DNA from: Bacilli bacterium
GTDB taxonomy: Bacteria > Bacillota_I > Bacilli_A > RF39 > UBA660
NCBI GenBank assembly: GCA_016295795.1
Contig: JAEDKN010000002.1
Location: 1,734 to 65,733, forward strand
Direction of reading: 5' to 3'
DNA length: 64,000 nucleotides
Shown here in pieces: positions 23,829 through 56,652 of this stretch; within the stretch, counting starts at the first letter, position 1, and each line of letters opens with the position of its first letter. The notes beneath the pieces were generated by a model. It saw nothing but the letters and a program-made list of their open reading frames with translations. It was not told the DNA's origin and did not search any database. Position numbers and translations under genes: made by a program.

Positions 23829-24272
23829 ATGGTGGAAATACTTAATAGGCGAGCAAAGCACGATTATTTTATAGAAGAAGAATATGAATGTGGGATAGTT
23901 TTAACTGGGACAGAAATTAAAGCTATTAGAGATGGAAAATGCAATTTGAAAGATAGTTATGCTGTTATAAGAAAAAACGAAATTTATTTACTTAATATGT
24001 TTATATCTCATTATAAGGAAGGAAATATTTTTAATCATAATGAAACAAGAACTAGAAAACTTTTAATGCATAAAAAGGAAATATTAAAACTTAGTGAGAA
24101 AATCAATTTACAAGGATTTACTTTAATTCCTCTAAAATTGTATTTCAAAAACAATAAAGCAAAGATATTATTGGGTTTATGTAAAGGAAAAAAGAATTAT
24201 GATAAAAGAGAAAGTATAAAGGAAAGGGATATACAAAGACAAATGGATAAGTCTAGTAAGATCAGATACTGA
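23829..24272 (+). CDS. smpB: SsrA-binding protein SmpB
   Basis: SmpB translation, directly upstream of the tmRNA gene. Confidence 0.96.
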   Translation: MVEILNRRAKHDYFIEEEYECGIVLTGTEIKAIRDGKCNLKDSYAVIRKNEIYLLNMFISHYKEGNIFNHNETRTRKLLMHKKEILKLSEKINLQGFTLIPLKLYFKNNKAKILLGLCKGKKNYDKRESIKERDIQRQMDKSSKIRY

Positions 24273-24319: not shown

Positions 24320-24700
24320 GGGGCCGACTAGGTTTCGACAGGAAGGATTGAATTTAGATAGCAAGTAGGAAGCAAACCTTAAATTGCATCAGTTAAATAT
24401 AACTGGAAACAAAATTAAAGATGCATTCGCTTCAATGTTTAATAAAAACGCTGTAGCTTTTGCCTAATTTATTAGGGAATGCGCTCTTATAAATTCTTTT
24501 CCTACGGGAATTTATTAAGGGCTGATTTTAGTAGGATATATTTCCGTTATGTCTATGAATGGAAATGAATTTTTATAGACTAGTTATATAATTGGTTGTT
24601 AATTACTTGTTATATAATGAATTTTATTAATTAACTAAACTTGTAGAAGTCTATCTGTCACCCTTTTTGGACGGGAGTTCGATTCTCCCCGGCTCCACCA
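24320..24700 (+). ncRNA. ssrA: tmRNA (SsrA)
   Basis: 5' GGGGCCGACUAGGUUUCGACAGG..., 3' GGACGGGAGUUCGAUUCUCCCCGGCUCCACCA (T-arm, acceptor, CCA); internal tag frame 24405-24467 reading GNKIKDAFASMFNKNAVAFA-stop. Confidence 0.93.
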
Positions 24701-35255: not shown

Positions 35256-35379
35256 TTAGTACGTGTGACTGGCTTAGATGTGTGAGGTTGCTGATACACC
35301 AGGATAAGTTGATAAATTAAATCAGGTTATTTACACGGAGCAAGTCTATACCAAGATATAGGCGAAGGGAGGATATGAA

Positions 35380-52202: not shown

Positions 52203-52250
52203 AAAAAGCTCTGTTGAGATAAATACTCAGCAGAGTTTTTATTTTTTTTC
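52203..52250. terminator. bidirectional terminator between the adhesin gene and the ABC permease gene
   Basis: CTCTGTTGAG/CTCAGCAGAG 10-bp stem (one G-U pair) flanked by A5 and a T-run. Confidence 0.65.
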
Positions 52251-53033
52251 AACTTTTTTTTCAATCAAATGAATGACATAATACATAAAATAAGATAATA
52301 TTCCTAAAACAAAAACTGAGGCAATTACTAAATTTATATTAAACACTTGTGATCCGTACATTATTAAGTAACCCAATCCTTTTTTTGAAACTAGTAGTTC
52401 TCCCATTATAACTCCGATTAGAGACATACTTATATTGATTTTAAAATTATTAATAATGTTAGAAATATTGCTTGGTATTACTACTTTTGTATATAGTTGC
52501 CATTTACTAGATTTAAAAGATTTCATTAGTGTTACAAAATTTTCATCTGTACTTATAAAGCTATTATAAATATTAATTATGCTTATTATAGAGCTAATCA
52601 TAAGAGCCATAAATATAATAGAATTTATACTAGCGCCTACCCAAATAATTATTAAAGGTCCTAATGCAACTTTTGGTAAAGAATTAATAATTGTTAAGTA
52701 GGGATCAGCAATTTTGGCAATCGTGTTATTCCACCATAGGATTGTTCCTACAATCAAGCCTATAATATTGGCTAATAAGAAACTTATAATAGTTTCATAT
52801 ACTGTTATACTAATATGATTGAATAAGTCTCCATTATTATATAACCCGACCAAGCATCTATATATATTTGATGGCGAAGAAAATAAGAAGGTATTTATTA
52901 TTTTTTTATAAGAAAGGTATTCCCATATCGCTAAGAATAAAATAATTATAATAATTTGCCAGAATAATATAAAATATTTCTTTTTTTTCTTCTTTTTAAG
53001 AAATTCTATATGCTCTCTACTAAAGGTGGACAT
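52239..53033 (-). CDS. ABC transporter permease, NitT/TauT (SsuC-like) family
   Basis: 6-TM permease with an EAA-type loop; ATG 53033 lies 7 nt after GGAGG; overlaps the ATPase 3' end. Confidence 0.85.
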   Translation of the reverse strand: MSTFSREHIEFLKKKKKKKYFILFWQIIIIILFLAIWEYLSYKKIINTFLFSSPSNIYRCLVGLYNNGDLFNHISITVYETIISFLLANIIGLIVGTILWWNNTIAKIADPYLTIINSLPKVALGPLIIIWVGASINSIIFMALMISSIISIINIYNSFISTDENFVTLMKSFKSSKWQLYTKVVIPSNISNIINNFKINISMSLIGVIMGELLVSKKGLGYLIMYGSQVFNINLVIASVFVLGILSYFMYYVIHLIEKKVEKK

Positions 53034-53190
53034 CCAAATCCCTCCAGATTTTATCATAGTAGTAACTAAATTCTTTACATTTTCTATTATTAATAGGGGT
53101 TGTACTGTTTGTTAGTTTAATATCGTAAATGCATTTTACTTTGGCAGGTCGCTTGGTTAATACTACAATTCGGTTAGATAAACTTATTGC
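53020..53190 (-). pseudogene. 3' fragment (56 codons plus stop) of the split SsuB/TauB-like ABC ATPase gene
   Basis: AISLSNRIVVLTKRPAKVKCIYDI... is the post-H-loop region of this ATPase family. Confidence 0.85.
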
Positions 53191-53256
53191 TTCACTTATG
53201 TACAAATAACCGTACTAAAAATCAAAAAATCTGATATAATTAATAAGAGTGATAGT

Positions 53257-53883
53257 ATGAAAAAGAATTATAAAGTGTTTTTGTTAATAGTGGTTTTAAT
53301 TATATATCAATCTTTTCTTTACTTGGTAAGCAAGTTAACTCCTCTTGATGTAACTGTTTTAGGAAATTGTTTAGATAATAAAATTCCATTTATATCTATA
53401 TATATTTATTTTTATATTAGTTGGTATGTTATGCTAATTATAGTTCCTTATTTAATATATGAGTATGATGAAGATGCCTTTTACAAATATGTAATGTCAA
53501 CTTTTTTTATAATAACAGTTACAAGTTTAATTTATATATTTTTTCCAACTACTATTATCAGAAGACCTATAATCGTTAATAATTTAACTACTTTTTTAAT
53601 TGACTTGATTTATCGAATAGATACTCCTGTTATGAATTGCTTTCCTAGTATGCATTGCGCAATATCATTTTTGTATATATTTATAATATTTGATAGTAAA
53701 GTTTTTCCTAAAAAAAAGAAATATTTTGTTTATATATGGTCTTTATTTGTTATTGCTTCAACGCTCTTTATCAAACAGCATGTTATAGTAGATGTAATAT
53801 CAGCGTTTATATTGTCATTATTTATTTATACAATTACTTGTAGAAGTGGTTTGTGGAAAAAAATAGTAATAAAAGAGAATTAA
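53257..53883 (+). CDS. PAP2_3 / sphingomyelin-synthase-like phosphatidic acid phosphatase family membrane protein
   Basis: Six hydrophobic helices; FPSMHCA (PSxH) and KQHVIVDVISAF (HxxxD) motifs; TGaTATAAT promoter at 53232-53240. Confidence 0.6.
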   Translation: MKKNYKVFLLIVVLIIYQSFLYLVSKLTPLDVTVLGNCLDNKIPFISIYIYFYISWYVMLIIVPYLIYEYDEDAFYKYVMSTFFIITVTSLIYIFFPTTIIRRPIIVNNLTTFLIDLIYRIDTPVMNCFPSMHCAISFLYIFIIFDSKVFPKKKKYFVYIWSLFVIASTLFIKQHVIVDVISAFILSLFIYTITCRSGLWKKIVIKEN

Positions 53884-53898
53884 AATTTCTCTTTTTTT
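53873..53898 (+). terminator. terminator after the PAP2-family gene
   Basis: AAGAGA/TCTCTT stem and a T7 run. Confidence 0.5.
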
Positions 53899-53922
53899 CA
53901 TATACTTGTTAAGAGTGATAAT

Positions 53923-55041
53923 ATGAGTGTGTCAACGGCAATTTATGTTAGAGTTTCAACGGAAGAGCAAGCTTTACATGGATTTTCTATTAGAGCACAG
54001 AAAGAGAAACTTATTTATTATGCAAAAAACATAAAAAATTGGGATGTATATGATACATATATAGATGATGGAATAAGTGGGAAAAACATTAAAGAAAGGC
54101 CGGAAATAAAAAGAATGTTGGAGGATATAGCAAACAAAAAAGTTAATAATGTACTGGTTTTTAAAATAGATAGATTAACTAGATCGACAAAAGATCTTAT
54201 AGATTTAATTGAATTTTTCAATAGAAATAATTGTGATTTTAATTCTCTTAATGAATCTATTGATACATCGAGCGCAACTGGCAGAATGTTTATTAAGATA
54301 ATAGGAATATTTGCAGAATTTGAAAGAGAGAATATTGTTGAAAGAGTTAAACTAGGTTTTGAAAGAAAGGTTAAAGAGGGAAATAGTATTTGTAGTTCAA
54401 CTCCACCGTTTGGATATAATAGACCAAAGGGAAGTAATATATTAGTTATAAATAAAAGTGAAAGTGTAATTGTAAAAAGAATATATGCATTTTTTTTGAA
54501 TGGATTTTCAATTAGTAAAATTTGTAATATTTTGAATATGCAAAATATAAAAACTAAAAAAGATAGAATGTGGAGTAACAAAACGATTAAATTGATATTA
54601 ACTAATACTACTTATATAGGTAAAGTTAGATATGGTGTCAATAAAAAAAATTATTTTGATACCTTTGGACATCATATTCCTATAATTTCCGAAAGTGAGT
54701 TTAATCTGGTACAGCAAAAGCTTCTTAAACAGGGTAGTAATCGAACTAAAACAGATGCATATTATTCACATATTTTAAAATGTAAGTGTGGATCTGATAT
54801 GATCTCAAAACGAATATATAAAATTAATAAAAGTGGGGTAAAAAAAGTTTATATAAATTACAGATGTAAAAATAAAAAAGATGGTTGTAGTAAAGATATA
54901 AGCCACAAAAAAATAGATAAAATGATGTCTTTAGTAAATGATGATTGGATAGTATTTTCTAATGAAGAAAAGTATGATTTCCTTATAAGAAAAAATATTC
55001 ATTTATTAGTAGAGAAAGGAAAGTTAAAAATAATAATGTGA
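53923..55041 (+). CDS. large serine recombinase (short form, 372 aa)
   Basis: AIYVRVSTEEQ catalytic Ser motif, FKIDRLTRS, FAEFERENIVERVK, recombinase domain, Cys motif CKCG...YRCKNKKDGC. Confidence 0.9.
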   Translation: MSVSTAIYVRVSTEEQALHGFSIRAQKEKLIYYAKNIKNWDVYDTYIDDGISGKNIKERPEIKRMLEDIANKKVNNVLVFKIDRLTRSTKDLIDLIEFFNRNNCDFNSLNESIDTSSATGRMFIKIIGIFAEFERENIVERVKLGFERKVKEGNSICSSTPPFGYNRPKGSNILVINKSESVIVKRIYAFFLNGFSISKICNILNMQNIKTKKDRMWSNKTIKLILTNTTYIGKVRYGVNKKNYFDTFGHHIPIISESEFNLVQQKLLKQGSNRTKTDAYYSHILKCKCGSDMISKRIYKINKSGVKKVYINYRCKNKKDGCSKDISHKKIDKMMSLVNDDWIVFSNEEKYDFLIRKNIHLLVEKGKLKIIM

Positions 55042-55082
55042 TTTTTATTTTGTCCACTAATAGTTAGCTTTTATGATATAGG

Positions 55083-55670
55083 TTCAGCTAGGTCGTGAGT
55101 AACCATAATTGCCGTTTTTCCTTCGTTCTTGATTATTTTATACACATCATCCGAAAGAGCTAATCTAGTTTGATAGTCTAAAGCACTAAACGGTTCATCT
55201 AAAAGGAGTATGTCAGGATTGGTTGCTAGTGTTCTGATAAGTGCTACCCTTTGCCTCATTCCACCAGATAATGAATCGGGATATTTGTTCATAAAATCTT
55301 TTAAACCATAAGTCTCCAATAATTTAATTACTCTGTTTTTAGACTCTTCAGTTAAGGTGTTACTTACTTCTAAGCCTATTAAGCAGTTTTCGAATATTGT
55401 TCTCCAAGGAAATAATGAATCTTTTTGAAGCATATATCCGATTTTTAAATTGTTATTTAATGATATATTACCACTTGATTTGTTTTCTAACCCTGATAGG
55501 ATTGACAATAATGTTGATTTTCCACAACCAGAAGGACCAACTATTGAAATAAATTCTTTGTCTTTGACTTTTAAATCAATATTTTCAATAGCTAATATCT
55601 CGCTTTTTTTATCATGATAAATCTTTTTAAGATTGCTAATTTCTAAAATTGTATTATCCACATTAATCAC
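55083..55670 (-). pseudogene. 5' fragment (196 codons) of the split SsuB/TauB-like ABC ATPase gene
   Basis: GPSGCGKST Walker A, LSGGMRQR signature, ILLLDEPFSALD Walker B, MVTHDLAE H-loop, then 3 foreign codons and a stop at 55071. Confidence 0.88.
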
Positions 55671-56652
55671 TGTTATAGATCAAATCTTCATAAGGTACGA
55701 TTTCGTCCAATTCTCCTGATGCAATCATGATTTCTTGTAAATGTTCAAATGATTCTTGTGTAAATTCAGTATTTTTTGGCCAAGTATCTTGGCTTTTATA
55801 TCTTTCTATTACTTTTGTTAAATCTGTTAGGGAAGTATCTGGGAAAAATTCTAATATTGATTTAGCAATAGTTTCACTATCGTTTTCATGTACAAAATCC
55901 AATCCTTTTTGTACAGCTCTTGTGAATTTTTCTATAATTTCTTTGTTCTCTTTTATGTAGCTTATTCTAGCACTATAAGAAGTATATGGAACAACACCTC
56001 CTAATTCACCAATTGAGGCAACTACGTAACCATATCCTTGCTGTTCAACTTCTAAAGCAGTTGGTTCAAAAAGCGTCACAAAATCGCCAGTTCCTCCAAT
56101 AAAGGCTCCTCCCATTGCTGCAAAAGCGATGCTAGTATCAATAGTTAAATCTTTTTCTGGATCAATTCCTGCTTCCCTAAGTGCCCATTCAAATGTCATT
56201 TCTGGCATTCCTCCAGCTCTTCCACCAATAACAGTTTTTCCTTTTAAATCTTCTAGGGTAAAATTTTCTATCTTTTCTCTAGATACTAAAAAACTTCCAT
56301 CTTTTTGGGTTAGTTGTGCAAAAGTTTTAAGATAATCCTTTTCTCCACCATTATAAACATAAATAGTTGCTTCGCTTCCAGAAAATCCAATATCGACATC
56401 ACCTGACAAAACTGCTGCTGTAACTTTATCTGCACCCGGAGTTAAAGTTAAGTCAATGTCTAATCCTTCTTCTTCAAAGAAACCTTCACTTATTGCTGCA
56501 TATTGTGGTGCATAAAATATACTATGAGCGACTTCAGCAACTTTTACTTTGGTTAGATTATTCTTCTTACCTGTATTAAGATTTACAATAACAGCGCATA
56601 CTAAAATAAATAATCCTAAAATTGCAATAGTAGTAATTATTCTTTTTTTCAT
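55663..56652 (-). CDS. ABC transporter substrate-binding protein, NMT1/THI5 (SsuA/TauA-like) family
   Basis: N-terminal anchor; VAEVAHSIFYAPQYAAISEGFFEEEGLDIDL; first gene of the SBP-ATPase-permease operon. Confidence 0.8.
   Translation of the reverse strand: MKKRIITTIAILGLFILVCAVIVNLNTGKKNNLTKVKVAEVAHSIFYAPQYAAISEGFFEEEGLDIDLTLTPGADKVTAAVLSGDVDIGFSGSEATIYVYNGGEKDYLKTFAQLTQKDGSFLVSREKIENFTLEDLKGKTVIGGRAGGMPEMTFEWALREAGIDPEKDLTIDTSIAFAAMGGAFIGGTGDFVTLFEPTALEVEQQGYGYVVASIGELGGVVPYTSYSARISYIKENKEIIEKFTRAVQKGLDFVHENDSETIAKSILEFFPDTSLTDLTKVIERYKSQDTWPKNTEFTQESFEHLQEIMIASGELDEIVPYEDLIYNSD

Follow-up and report, generated by a model that had tools for sequence, protein, structure and literature searches.

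The window analysed here is a 64,000-nucleotide stretch of a genome named Bacilli bacterium (RF39 group; assembly GCA_016295795.1, contig JAEDKN010000002.1, positions 1,734 to 65,733). On its minus strand it carries a three-gene operon for an ABC importer, with the genes of a substrate-binding protein (SBP), an ATPase and a permease. The ATPase gene is split after codon 196 (...THDLAE/AISLS...; here and below the slash marks the join) by an insert that is most probably a minimal site-specific integrative element. A first-pass annotation of the sequence had proposed that this open reading frame (ORF) is precisely interrupted in frame and that joining position 55083 to 53190 would rebuild it. 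All of the features named in that proposal are present: the join combines 588 and 171 nt into 252 codons and a stop and removes 1,892 bp.

The N-terminal fragment is a 199-aa ORF (55670 to 55071, minus strand) with the Walker A, signature, Walker B and H-loop motifs. It ends in ...MVTHDLAE, followed by three element codons (PIS) and the stop at 55071, and its 196 gene-derived residues are identical to residues 1-196 of P0001, an intact 252-aa protein encoded on contig L001 (P and L numbers denote the proteins and loci compared). The ORF that ends at 53020 on the same strand reads ...SE-AISLSNRIVVLTKRPAKV... and ...SEAISLSNRIVVLTKRPAKV.... Rebuilt at the join, the ATPase aligns unbroken with intact homologues, as the annotation had expected. 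Its alignments with P0001 to P0045 run as a single stretch across residues 196/197, with 100% identity to P0001 and 97% to P0002, which is encoded in an NCBI metagenome-assembled genome (MAG) also named Bacilli bacterium (GCA_051886475.1). The NCBIfam model SaoA is matched in one stretch as well (residues 9-244 to 2-239 of 248), and so is CmpD/NrtD in PDB, where MVTHDLAEAISLSNRIVVLT of the rebuilt protein pairs with MITHDIDEALFLADRLVMMT across the join. From its motifs, the Q-loop included, and from C-terminal strands colinear with intact members, the interrupted gene can be assigned to the ATPases of NitT/TauT-type ABC importers. The rebuilt protein scores below every NCBIfam equivalog cut-off, and its substrate is therefore not assigned from profiles.

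The joined gene had been expected to be translationally coupled to both of its neighbours, and the overlaps behind this expectation are present. The 8-nt overlap between the SBP gene and the ATPase start (55663-55670) is real, and the 14-nt overlap between the ATPase 3' end and the permease gene is obtained for a 264-aa permease starting at 53033; the longest permease ORF begins at 53057. In a fully syntenic MAG (L002, ~90% identical to the window) the permease is likewise called at 264 aa. The permease 5' end (52960-53000) encodes a lysine run, FLKKKKKKKYF, by means of long A/T homopolymers (cttttttttcttcttttt on the plus strand), and these tracts could be slippage-prone.

The only genes between the two ATPase parts, as first annotated, are those of a PAP2-family membrane protein and of a 372-aa serine recombinase, and they are read from the other strand. 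The non-coding parts of the insert amount to 62, 39 and 41 bp and leave room for these two ORFs only. The 1,892 bp encode no second protein that could serve as a directionality or accessory factor, and the element ORFs, with PAP2 as the only cargo, include no relaxase/oriT mobilisation module. The PAP2 protein scores 29.6 bits in Pfam, just over the gathering cut-off of 27.2, and it shows the acid-phosphatase motifs RRP...PSMH...HxxxD (QHVIVD). It has no NCBIfam, PHROG or PADLOC match, and PHROGs and PADLOC were uninformative for the cargo of related elements too. A near-identical string, TAAGAGTGATA(G/A)TATG, stands ahead of both element genes (53240-53256 and 53906-53922) and is probably a shared ribosome-binding region.

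A protein search with the rebuilt ATPase led to the intact P0001 and P0002. Their contigs, L001 and L002, track the window to 55083 and pick up again at 53194, sharing the four bases TGAA, and eight further element-free contigs of the same species (L210-L217) span the join. These contigs carry exactly the join that had been predicted, and the element-specific DNA is absent from them, though both flanks match. The nine empty contigs of the species (L001 and L210-L217) are 98.1-99.5% identical to the window, compared with 99.6% or more for the occupied ones; they therefore come from other strains, and none is an excisant of the window's clone. The interrupted architecture was found in at least 23 independently assembled contigs from many runs and assemblers, and an index of public assemblies lists the 199-aa fragment in 50 blocks. 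In 10/10 contigs examined in detail the gene order is SBP, N-fragment, recombinase, PAP2 protein and permease (the short C-fragment has no gene call in them), and flanks and element alike are 99.1-100% identical to the window. The element-specific DNA itself is 99.6-99.8% identical in L003-L012. A 99.2%-identical strain (L013; Logan SRR25667345, 2529-2717) has a different element at the very same GA dinucleotide. Its junction reads ...LAE/VMYKKS... in protein and ...GCTGAA/GTCATGTACAAGAAAAG... in DNA, and a gene starting MSDIEQRIEK points inward in the ~130 bp of the element that the contig covers. Empty, occupied and differently occupied alleles are thus found side by side in the window's species, most of whose sampled strains are element-free, and the window's insertion is a strain-level acquisition in one widespread clone. 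Sequencing runs that contain this clone include SRR30616820, SRR30262113, SRR27108407, SRR30938787, SRR36358920, SRR17241589, SRR27829856 and SRR17806420.

The first-pass annotation had placed the split and the join correctly. The refinement made here is that the junctions share TGAA and that comparison across the family of related elements described below puts the crossover at GA. When 15 N-junctions and 19 C-junctions are aligned, GA is the sole motif invariant at both. The neighbours of this core differ (TGAA/TGAG in L020, TGAC/CGAA in L033, ATGAA in L024, GTGAA/GCGAA in L101), and the N-fragment of L033 ends in ...GD, not ...GE, as predicted for a crossover within GA. The host side reads ...CATGAC(C/T)TAG(C/G)T-GA-AGCTATAAGT... 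across the family, and the two ends of the element have the sequences ...(A)GAACTCAAGT-GA and GA-ACTTGAGTTCT..., in some members in diverged form, with a left arm that is conserved among the PAP2-clade elements (window, L014, L101). The reconstructed attP sites show dyad symmetry about GA at a mean of 57% of 24 positions, compared with ~30% estimated by chance for AT-rich DNA; the symmetry reaches 19/24 in L037, and the inner arms of L020 are near-perfect over ~10 bp. The crossover is thus likely to be the GA dinucleotide, which falls in the codons of the H-loop (...L, A or G, E, then AIS...), with imperfect inverted-repeat arms around a 2-bp centre. For the window, the predicted junction strings are GACCTAGCTGAAGCAATAAGT and ACTCACGACCTAGCTGAAGCAATAAGTTTATC for attB, and TACATAAGTGAACCTATATCA and TTTGTACATAAGTGAACCTATATCATAAAAGC for attP. 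A degenerate 16-mer for the circle junction of the PAP2 clade gave only chance AT-rich matches and was discarded. Both GA cores of the window lie on one strand, in direct orientation, and recombination between them therefore deletes the segment and does not invert it, which rules out an inversion switch.

Table 1. Features of the interrupted operon, of the inserted element and of its ends, with the RNA features found elsewhere in the window.
Feature	Position	Strand	Remarks
SBP gene	55663..56652	-	329 aa, NMT1/SsuA-like; Pfam NMT1 E 6e-25
ATPase 5' part, codons 1-196	55083..55670	-	Pfam ABC_tran E 8e-33
ATPase 3' part, codons 197-252 (AISLSNRIVVLTKRP...) and stop	53020..53190	-	Colinear with intact homologues and PDB CmpD
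Permease gene	52239..53057	-	Pfam BPD_transp_1 E 3.5e-23
Element-specific DNA	53194..55083	.	1,890 bp; with one GA, the 1,892-bp excisable segment
PAP2-superfamily membrane protein	53257..53883	+	208 aa; Pfam PAP2 E 6.6e-7, PAP2_3 E 1e-5
Serine recombinase	53923..55041	+	372 aa; Resolvase E 3.3e-41, Recombinase E 6.1e-21 (residues 180-269)
attL core TGAA, 5'-part/element boundary	55083..55086	-	Inferred crossover GA 55085-55084
attR core TGAA, element/3'-part boundary	53191..53194	-	Inferred crossover GA 53193-53192
Left element end, attP-type arm, with 62-bp PAP2 leader	53195..53256	+	...GGTTATTTGTACATAAGT-GA (minus-strand reading)
Right element end, attP-type arm	55042..55082	+	GA-ACCTATATCATAAAAGCTAACTAT (minus-strand reading)
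tmRNA (Rfam)	24320-24700		Beside smpB (23829-24272)
L10 leader (Rfam)	2112-2230
S10-Clostridia leader (Rfam)	35267-35365

The assignment of the 372-aa protein to the large serine recombinases is borne out by its Pfam Resolvase and Recombinase domains and by structural matches to serine integrases. It matches a PHROG annotated as integrase (E 1e-103), and its catalytic domain is 51% identical to that of the TP901-1 integrase, the best sequence match in PDB. The catalytic residues R10, S12, D83, R84 and R87 are invariant in 47 relatives. The zinc-ribbon ligands C287, C289, C315 and C322 are invariant in the group labelled A1 and at least 90% conserved in that labelled A2; the Pfam zinc-ribbon model PF13408 gives no score on the 372-aa protein. 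An AlphaFold (AF2) model computed with 47 short relatives has a predicted local distance difference test score (pLDDT) of 84, with the Recombinase domain (PF07508) above 90, and contains the zinc ribbon, two short helices and a terminal hairpin. In this model there is a beta-ribbon at residues 285-315, helix 328-338 leads straight to helix 347-356, and no long coiled coil is present. The best Foldseek matches to the model are SPbeta SprA (top) and the Bxb1, Listeria innocua (LI) and phiC31 integrases. Its NCBIfam matches stay far from equivalog status, with 190.7 bits for CcrB (cut-off 900, E 4e-56), 180 for CcrC (cut-off 900, E 7e-53) and 140.6 for XisF (cut-off 375, E 7e-41).

Aligned with relatives of 490-498 aa (~494 aa, such as P0206; 51-55% identical), the short recombinase shows a gap of ~100 residues exactly at the position of the coiled coil, between ...SHxKLEK and NWxxLxxxEK. 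By the alignment and the model, the protein is a large serine recombinase without the coiled-coil motif. A tree of 116 relatives, computed from their first 325 residues, places 62 of the 66 proteins under 420 aa in a single pure clade, which argues that the coiled coil was lost essentially once and that the short form has since been kept. The ratio of nonsynonymous to synonymous substitution rates (dN/dS) of the recombinase is 0.14-0.33 across the family pairs compared, and 0.16-0.18 in the trio L020, L024 and L033. The recombinase is thus kept by purifying selection.

Loci of relatives were gathered from genome, metagenome and viral collections and by exact-protein look-ups. Every short recombinase of the clade (349-386 aa) with readable flanks lies at this ATPase codon (L014-L020, L022-L026, L033, L037, L079, L100/L101, L125-L128, L134 and L338-L341). 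The flanking pieces are the C-terminal part (~194-252) beside the recombinase start and an N-terminal part that ends at residues 196-200 where the contig reaches it. Among these loci, L033 is a circular 1.31-Mb long-read MAG chromosome. The same site is also occupied by larger elements with full-length recombinases (492-533 aa) in the more distant, Clostridia-like MAGs L021, L034, L039 and L145.

The family elements measure 1.86-5.8 kb and have only the recombinase in common; no other gene is shared. Their cargo varies by sub-clade and is mostly related to the cell envelope. It consists of PAP2 alone in the window and L100/L101, and of PAP2 with a 643-aa LtaS-like sulfatase in L014 and L126. 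L023 and L026 carry collagen/BclA_C proteins, in L026 together with a GT2-TPR glycosyltransferase. The L020 group and L340 carry a sortase and a VWA surface protein, to which a 184-aa membrane protein and a NAGPA phosphodiester glycosidase may be added; the latter two form the whole cargo of L037, L079 and L339. A PAP2 homologue of 55% identity lies divergently beside the gene of a 641-aa LtaS-like sulfatase on L205-L207 (2972-5627), in an ordinary chromosomal setting (feoAB, htpG, mscS) without a recombinase. Because of this adjacency, the cargo looks like captured envelope-biosynthesis genes: the PAP2 and LtaS-like genes on elements of the L014/L126 type look like a captured functional pair, of which the window keeps only PAP2. 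In L024 (12404-13662) the NAGPA gene is broken into ORFs of 81 and 295 aa while the recombinase and the ATPase pieces are intact, so cargo can decay with the recombinase and the split host gene retained. The collagen-repeat cargo lies at 9188-11473 in L023 and 9147-12434 in L026, and the L023 protein, which was scanned, has a BclA C-terminal domain of the exosporium type. In L341 an Amidase_3 gene follows rplM-rpsI, which is also the position of cwlD in Bacillus subtilis. The BclA-like cargo and the position of this amidase gene are weak hints that some hosts form spores.

The distance from the crossover to the start of the first element gene, which is either the recombinase or PAP2 with the recombinase behind it, is 16-62 bp in every member of the family, as in the window (53195-53256), L023 (7991-8007), L026 (7985-8001) and L020 (7953-7989). 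Because of this short distance, transcription would have to enter across the junction, from host DNA in the integrated state and from the other element end in the circle. Promoters formed at circle junctions are a feature of some transposable elements, and transcription across the junction is a plausible control point here.

The ATPase codon is not the only target in this operon. In L020 (13685-16990), L022, L024, L025 and L033 the ATPase is split a second time at about codon 139, after the signature motif (LSGGMR/QRVALIR) and ahead of Walker B. The element at this site encodes a 537-542-aa serine recombinase (Zn_ribbon_recom and DUF4368), to which L020 adds a Bro-N protein, and genomes with the same first element do not have the same second one. 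The SBP gene is split at about residue 191-193 by elements with serine recombinases of 439-567 aa (L100/L101, L127/L128, L338-L341), and the permease gene at about residue 217 by elements with serine recombinases of 422-459 aa (L015/L017/L019, L340). Both halves are visible for the SBP in L101 and for the permease in L340. Recombinases therefore recurrently target four sites in the three-gene operon. One operon can hold as many as three or four different elements of this kind, and the ATPase, permease and SBP pieces are still open coding sequence.

The recombinase and host-permease trees agree in most groupings, with L101 as the clear exception. The L101 recombinase is 76% identical to that of L014, while its permease and ATPase are only ~54-55% identical to those of L014 and the window, which indicates horizontal transfer of the minimal PAP2 and recombinase element into a distant host. 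The trio L020, L024 and L033, genomes of three different species, represents the opposite case. Flanks and element have diverged to the same extent: host-flank DNA is 93.5, 90.3 and 91.1% identical in the three pairs and the element 93.3, 89.4 and 91.6%, and synonymous divergence (dS) is likewise similar, 0.27-0.37 for the recombinase, 0.15-0.40 for the cargo and 0.13-0.49 for the permease. The element was therefore already present in the common ancestor of the trio.

Over this period the interrupted gene has not decayed. The ATPase pieces of the trio (113 codons) differ by 8.5-19.5 synonymous and 2-2.5 nonsynonymous changes, a ratio of the nonsynonymous to the synonymous proportion (pN/pS) of 0.03-0.08 (binomial p of 3e-5 to 8e-12 against neutrality). 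The ratio is 0.03-0.22 for the ATPase pieces of the compared interrupted loci, and no frameshift or stop was found in the aligned pieces (residues 140-252) of these loci. The permease of the trio has a dN/dS of 0.02-0.05; permease ratios were computed from explicit coordinates, and dN values of ~1.3, which were artefacts of ORF trimming, were dropped. A permanently dead gene would not be expected to show such selection. Two explanations are at hand, regular rebuilding of the gene by excision and continual re-derivation of interrupted alleles from intact ones in recombining populations, and both need precise excision or integration to be ongoing. Residence of the element through speciation, together with selection on the split gene, would imply that excision, and possibly re-integration or loss, takes place often enough to keep the gene in use.

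The insert is most probably, as stated at the outset, a minimal site-specific integrative element. Its recombinase would be able to remove it precisely, probably without a directionality factor. A minimal integrative element had been named in the first-pass annotation as an alternative, and it is well supported by the presence of one recombinase clade at one codon with differing cargo, by the transfer into the host of L101 and by the empty and otherwise occupied alleles. In the proposed mechanism, the recombinase would bind the imperfect inverted repeats that flank GA at both junctions, the half-sites of attL and attR, and would make 2-nt staggered cuts at GA, as is typical for serine recombinases. 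The element would leave as a 1,892-bp circle and the translationally coupled SBP-ATPase-permease operon would be restored. Excision would probably be independent of other factors and set by the amount of recombinase made, because canonical integrases owe their block on attL x attR recombination to a coiled coil that this enzyme does not have, and because there is no room for a directionality factor. Factor independence is also the simplest expectation because the element encodes no second protein and only the recombinase is conserved across the family. When the coiled coil of the LI integrase is deleted by engineering, att-site binding is unaffected, and the resulting "unregulated resolvase" performs an intramolecular attL x attR excision of which the wild type is incapable (PMC3783163). 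In the integrated state the importer would be off and the PAP2 protein, a lipid-phosphatase-like envelope protein, would be supplied.

Several points weigh against an element that moves and excises in this way. In the LI integrase, deletion of the coiled coil abolishes intermolecular integration (PMC3783163), and integration into new genomes by an enzyme without it is unexplained. With no gene for replication, transfer or mobilisation on the element, its route between cells is likewise unexplained. No excised junction, circle junction or empty allele of the window's own clone was found in the assemblies, and the attP circle junction had 0 matches in IMG/VR, both as the window-type 23-mer and as the L020-type 24-mer. 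Promoter-like matches occur at chance level (27, compared with 26.5 in shuffled sequence), and the single matches at 53141-53169, in host DNA and directed into the element, and at 55050-55077, at the right end and directed outward, are not evidential. Also, purifying selection on the split gene could arise if the interrupted alleles were short-lived offshoots of intact ones.

A more far-reaching explanation takes the coiled-coil-less clade as a system of factor-independent "DNA-level splicing", in which the 2-6-kb elements are intron-like and, with the other recombinase elements at the three further sites of the operon, form a multi-lock switch between importer and surface genes, used for bet-hedging or in response to a cue. 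This can be put forward only tentatively, and we consider it rather doubtful. If true, the switch would trade importer activity against the element-borne PAP2, LtaS-like, sortase/adhesin and BclA-like genes. Excision would then serve the host population in organisms not known to differentiate, with elements that persist through speciation.

Cue-triggered excision or a reversible switch is possible, but in the window's species the variation between strains in the presence of the element counts against it. In its stricter form, this explanation holds that the insert is a domesticated intervening element, with the importer rebuilt on cue in all or some cells and the element kept in the continuing lineage. 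The architecture fits, and precise restoration of the gene is possible. In the trio, divergence of the element has kept pace with that of the chromosome, and both the split ATPase and the permease were under strong purifying selection; the operon holds up to three or four recombinase elements with pieces that still read open, which may be likened to the multiply interrupted nif and hup genes of heterocyst formers. The position of the recombinase start, 16-62 bp from the crossover, would allow control that depends on the integration state or on the host, and some cargo encodes a BclA-like, exosporium-type protein. However, most sampled strains of the window's species are element-free and one has a different occupant, which does not agree with conserved regulation. 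The element encodes no directionality factor or regulator, its target is a nutrient importer and not a differentiation gene, and no excised form appears in the assemblies. Neither sporulation or differentiation genes nor a riboswitch were found nearby: there is no clear sporulation gene in the window, although 64 kb are too little to settle whether the host sporulates, and the Rfam scan of the window gave no riboswitch or other RNA near the operon. A programmed switch of this kind is therefore judged unlikely.

Far less probable is that the insert is an inert remnant, left over from a decayed prophage or integrative and conjugative element, with a dead recombinase in a dead importer operon. 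The very small size of the element and its lack of transfer genes agree with this, as do the larger elements with full-length recombinases at the same site (L021, L034, L039), the broken NAGPA gene in L024 and the integration defect of the engineered coiled-coil-less integrase (PMC3783163). A dead recombinase would not be expected to keep its catalytic residues and zinc ligands, or a dN/dS of 0.14-0.33 in the family and 0.16-0.18 in the trio. The 62 cluster representatives form one coiled-coil-less clade, and the minimal PAP2 and recombinase form recurs by horizontal transfer in a distant host (L100/L101). The ATPase pieces free of frameshifts and stops (residues 140-252), with their pN/pS of 0.03-0.22, also speak against a dead operon.

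It is more improbable still that the split ATPase is active without excision, by assembly of the 199-aa N-terminal polypeptide with a separately translated C-terminal piece. All motifs from Walker A to the H-loop are on the N-fragment, an in-frame TTG is available as start codon of the C-fragment ORF, and activity of this kind would account for purifying selection on both pieces. On the other hand, no Shine-Dalgarno-like sequence precedes the TTG, and the N-terminal piece lacks the strand AISLSNRIVVL, which in solved homologues belongs to the core sheet. Moreover, in L020, L022, L024, L025 and L033 the N-terminal part is split again at about residue 139 and is still conserved, and assembly from three pieces is implausible. 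Lastly, an assembly or binning artefact, that is a chimeric join of unrelated reads, is a general risk of metagenome assemblies, but it can be dismissed here: at least 23 contigs, which come from many independent runs and assemblers, have the identical architecture, and homologous elements occupy this codon in dozens of other assemblies, the circular long-read L033 among them.

The rest of the window is a core region of the genome, with two ORFs of ~1,200 aa that have the size of rpoB and rpoC, ribosomal proteins and EF-G/EF-Tu. Genes for FemAB, a MurD-like ligase, MscL and a CtpB-like S41 peptidase are also present. The EF-Tu and the EF-G of the window are each alone in their 90% cluster, which suggests a poorly sampled lineage.

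The first-pass annotation had compared the locus with gene-interrupting elements that are excised on cue. The likeness holds for the splitting of an ORF and its precise rebuilding, and it fails for the accessory factor, which is missing, and for the target, which is not a differentiation gene. The skin element with SpoIVCA (in sigK), SPbeta with SprA-SprB (in spsM) and gin with GirC-GirX (in gerE) have, like the window, a large serine recombinase on an element that splits an ORF, junctions that are direct repeats, and an excision that rebuilds the ORF. Of these, gin has 31 genes and shows that gene-intervening elements need not be prophages (PMC5595907). Elements of this group contain tens of genes, compared with two genes and 1.9 kb in the window. 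Their recombinases are of full length, with a coiled coil and a separate factor (SprB, GirX), whereas the window's recombinase has neither, and their targets are sporulation genes from which they are excised in the mother cell, in contrast to an ABC importer. The fdxN element of heterocystous cyanobacteria, with XisF, is likewise a serine-recombinase element within a gene, and the interruption of one functional gene set by several elements in fdxN-type systems resembles the four split sites of this operon. The fdxN element is far larger and needs XisH and XisI. Its excision is tied to terminal differentiation, and the window's recombinase is not an XisF equivalog (140.6 bits compared with the cut-off of 375).

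The Tn4451/Tn4453 elements with TnpX are, like the window's element, small elements of Firmicutes with a large serine recombinase. Their crossover is 2 bp long, as junction comparison suggests for the window, and for TnpX/TndX it is GA, the same dinucleotide as inferred for the window. TnpX has ~700 aa, with a coiled coil and extra C-terminal domains, in contrast to a 372-aa enzyme with a single-codon target and no mobilisation gene. In Tn4451-type elements the 2-bp site is also found in the circle and in the empty target, and the recombinase alone excises and inserts the element (PMC5704250, PMC3158075); by analogy, the window's recombinase is probably self-sufficient as well. Tn4451 itself measures ~6 kb, has Mob/oriT and a resistance gene, and inserts with low specificity (PMC5704250). 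In streptococcal integrative and mobilisable elements (IMEs), serine recombinases direct insertion to a site inside a conserved gene, which is disrupted, and different elements share a site (PMC5704250). Unlike the window's element, these IMEs have relaxase/oriT modules, sizes from several to ~18 kb and full-length recombinases; the genes that they target are considered dispensable, and selection on an interrupted gene did not enter into that picture.

The coiled-coil deletion of the LI integrase (A118-type) has the same domains as the 372-aa protein, namely the catalytic domain, the recombinase domain and the zinc ribbon. That deletion is a laboratory construct inactive in integration, whereas the natural clade has evidently integrated in many genomes and must synapse otherwise. 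CcrB and CcrC of the staphylococcal cassette chromosome (SCC) give the best NCBIfam matches to the window's recombinase, far below the cut-offs. We know of no directionality factor for Ccr enzymes, which both excise and integrate. Unlike the window's element, SCC does not destroy its target gene, rlmH, at whose 3' end it integrates, and Ccr enzymes have ~450-560 aa.

In the literature searched there is no description of natural large serine recombinases without a coiled coil or of elements at this ATPase codon, which is not proof of novelty. The family goes beyond described gene-interrupting elements in combining one coiled-coil-less clade, one codon, variable envelope cargo and co-divergence with a split gene under selection, and beyond described systems also in the several other recombinase elements at recurrent sites of the same operon. 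A natural coiled-coil-less clade at a single codon offers a ready test of the model in which the coiled coil and a partner factor set directionality. It is also a source of very compact site-specific recombinases (~370 aa) with a defined attP, attB and GA core. Gene-interrupting elements, so far tied to sporulation and heterocyst differentiation, are extended by it to a nutrient importer of uncultured Bacilli from the gut and to a size of two genes. Co-divergence of the element together with purifying selection on the split gene indicates, indirectly, that DNA-level reconstitution of the gene occurs in nature. Four sites of the operon are split recurrently, each by a recombinase lineage of its own, and this raises the question of whether the operon is a safe harbour for such elements or a multi-element switch.

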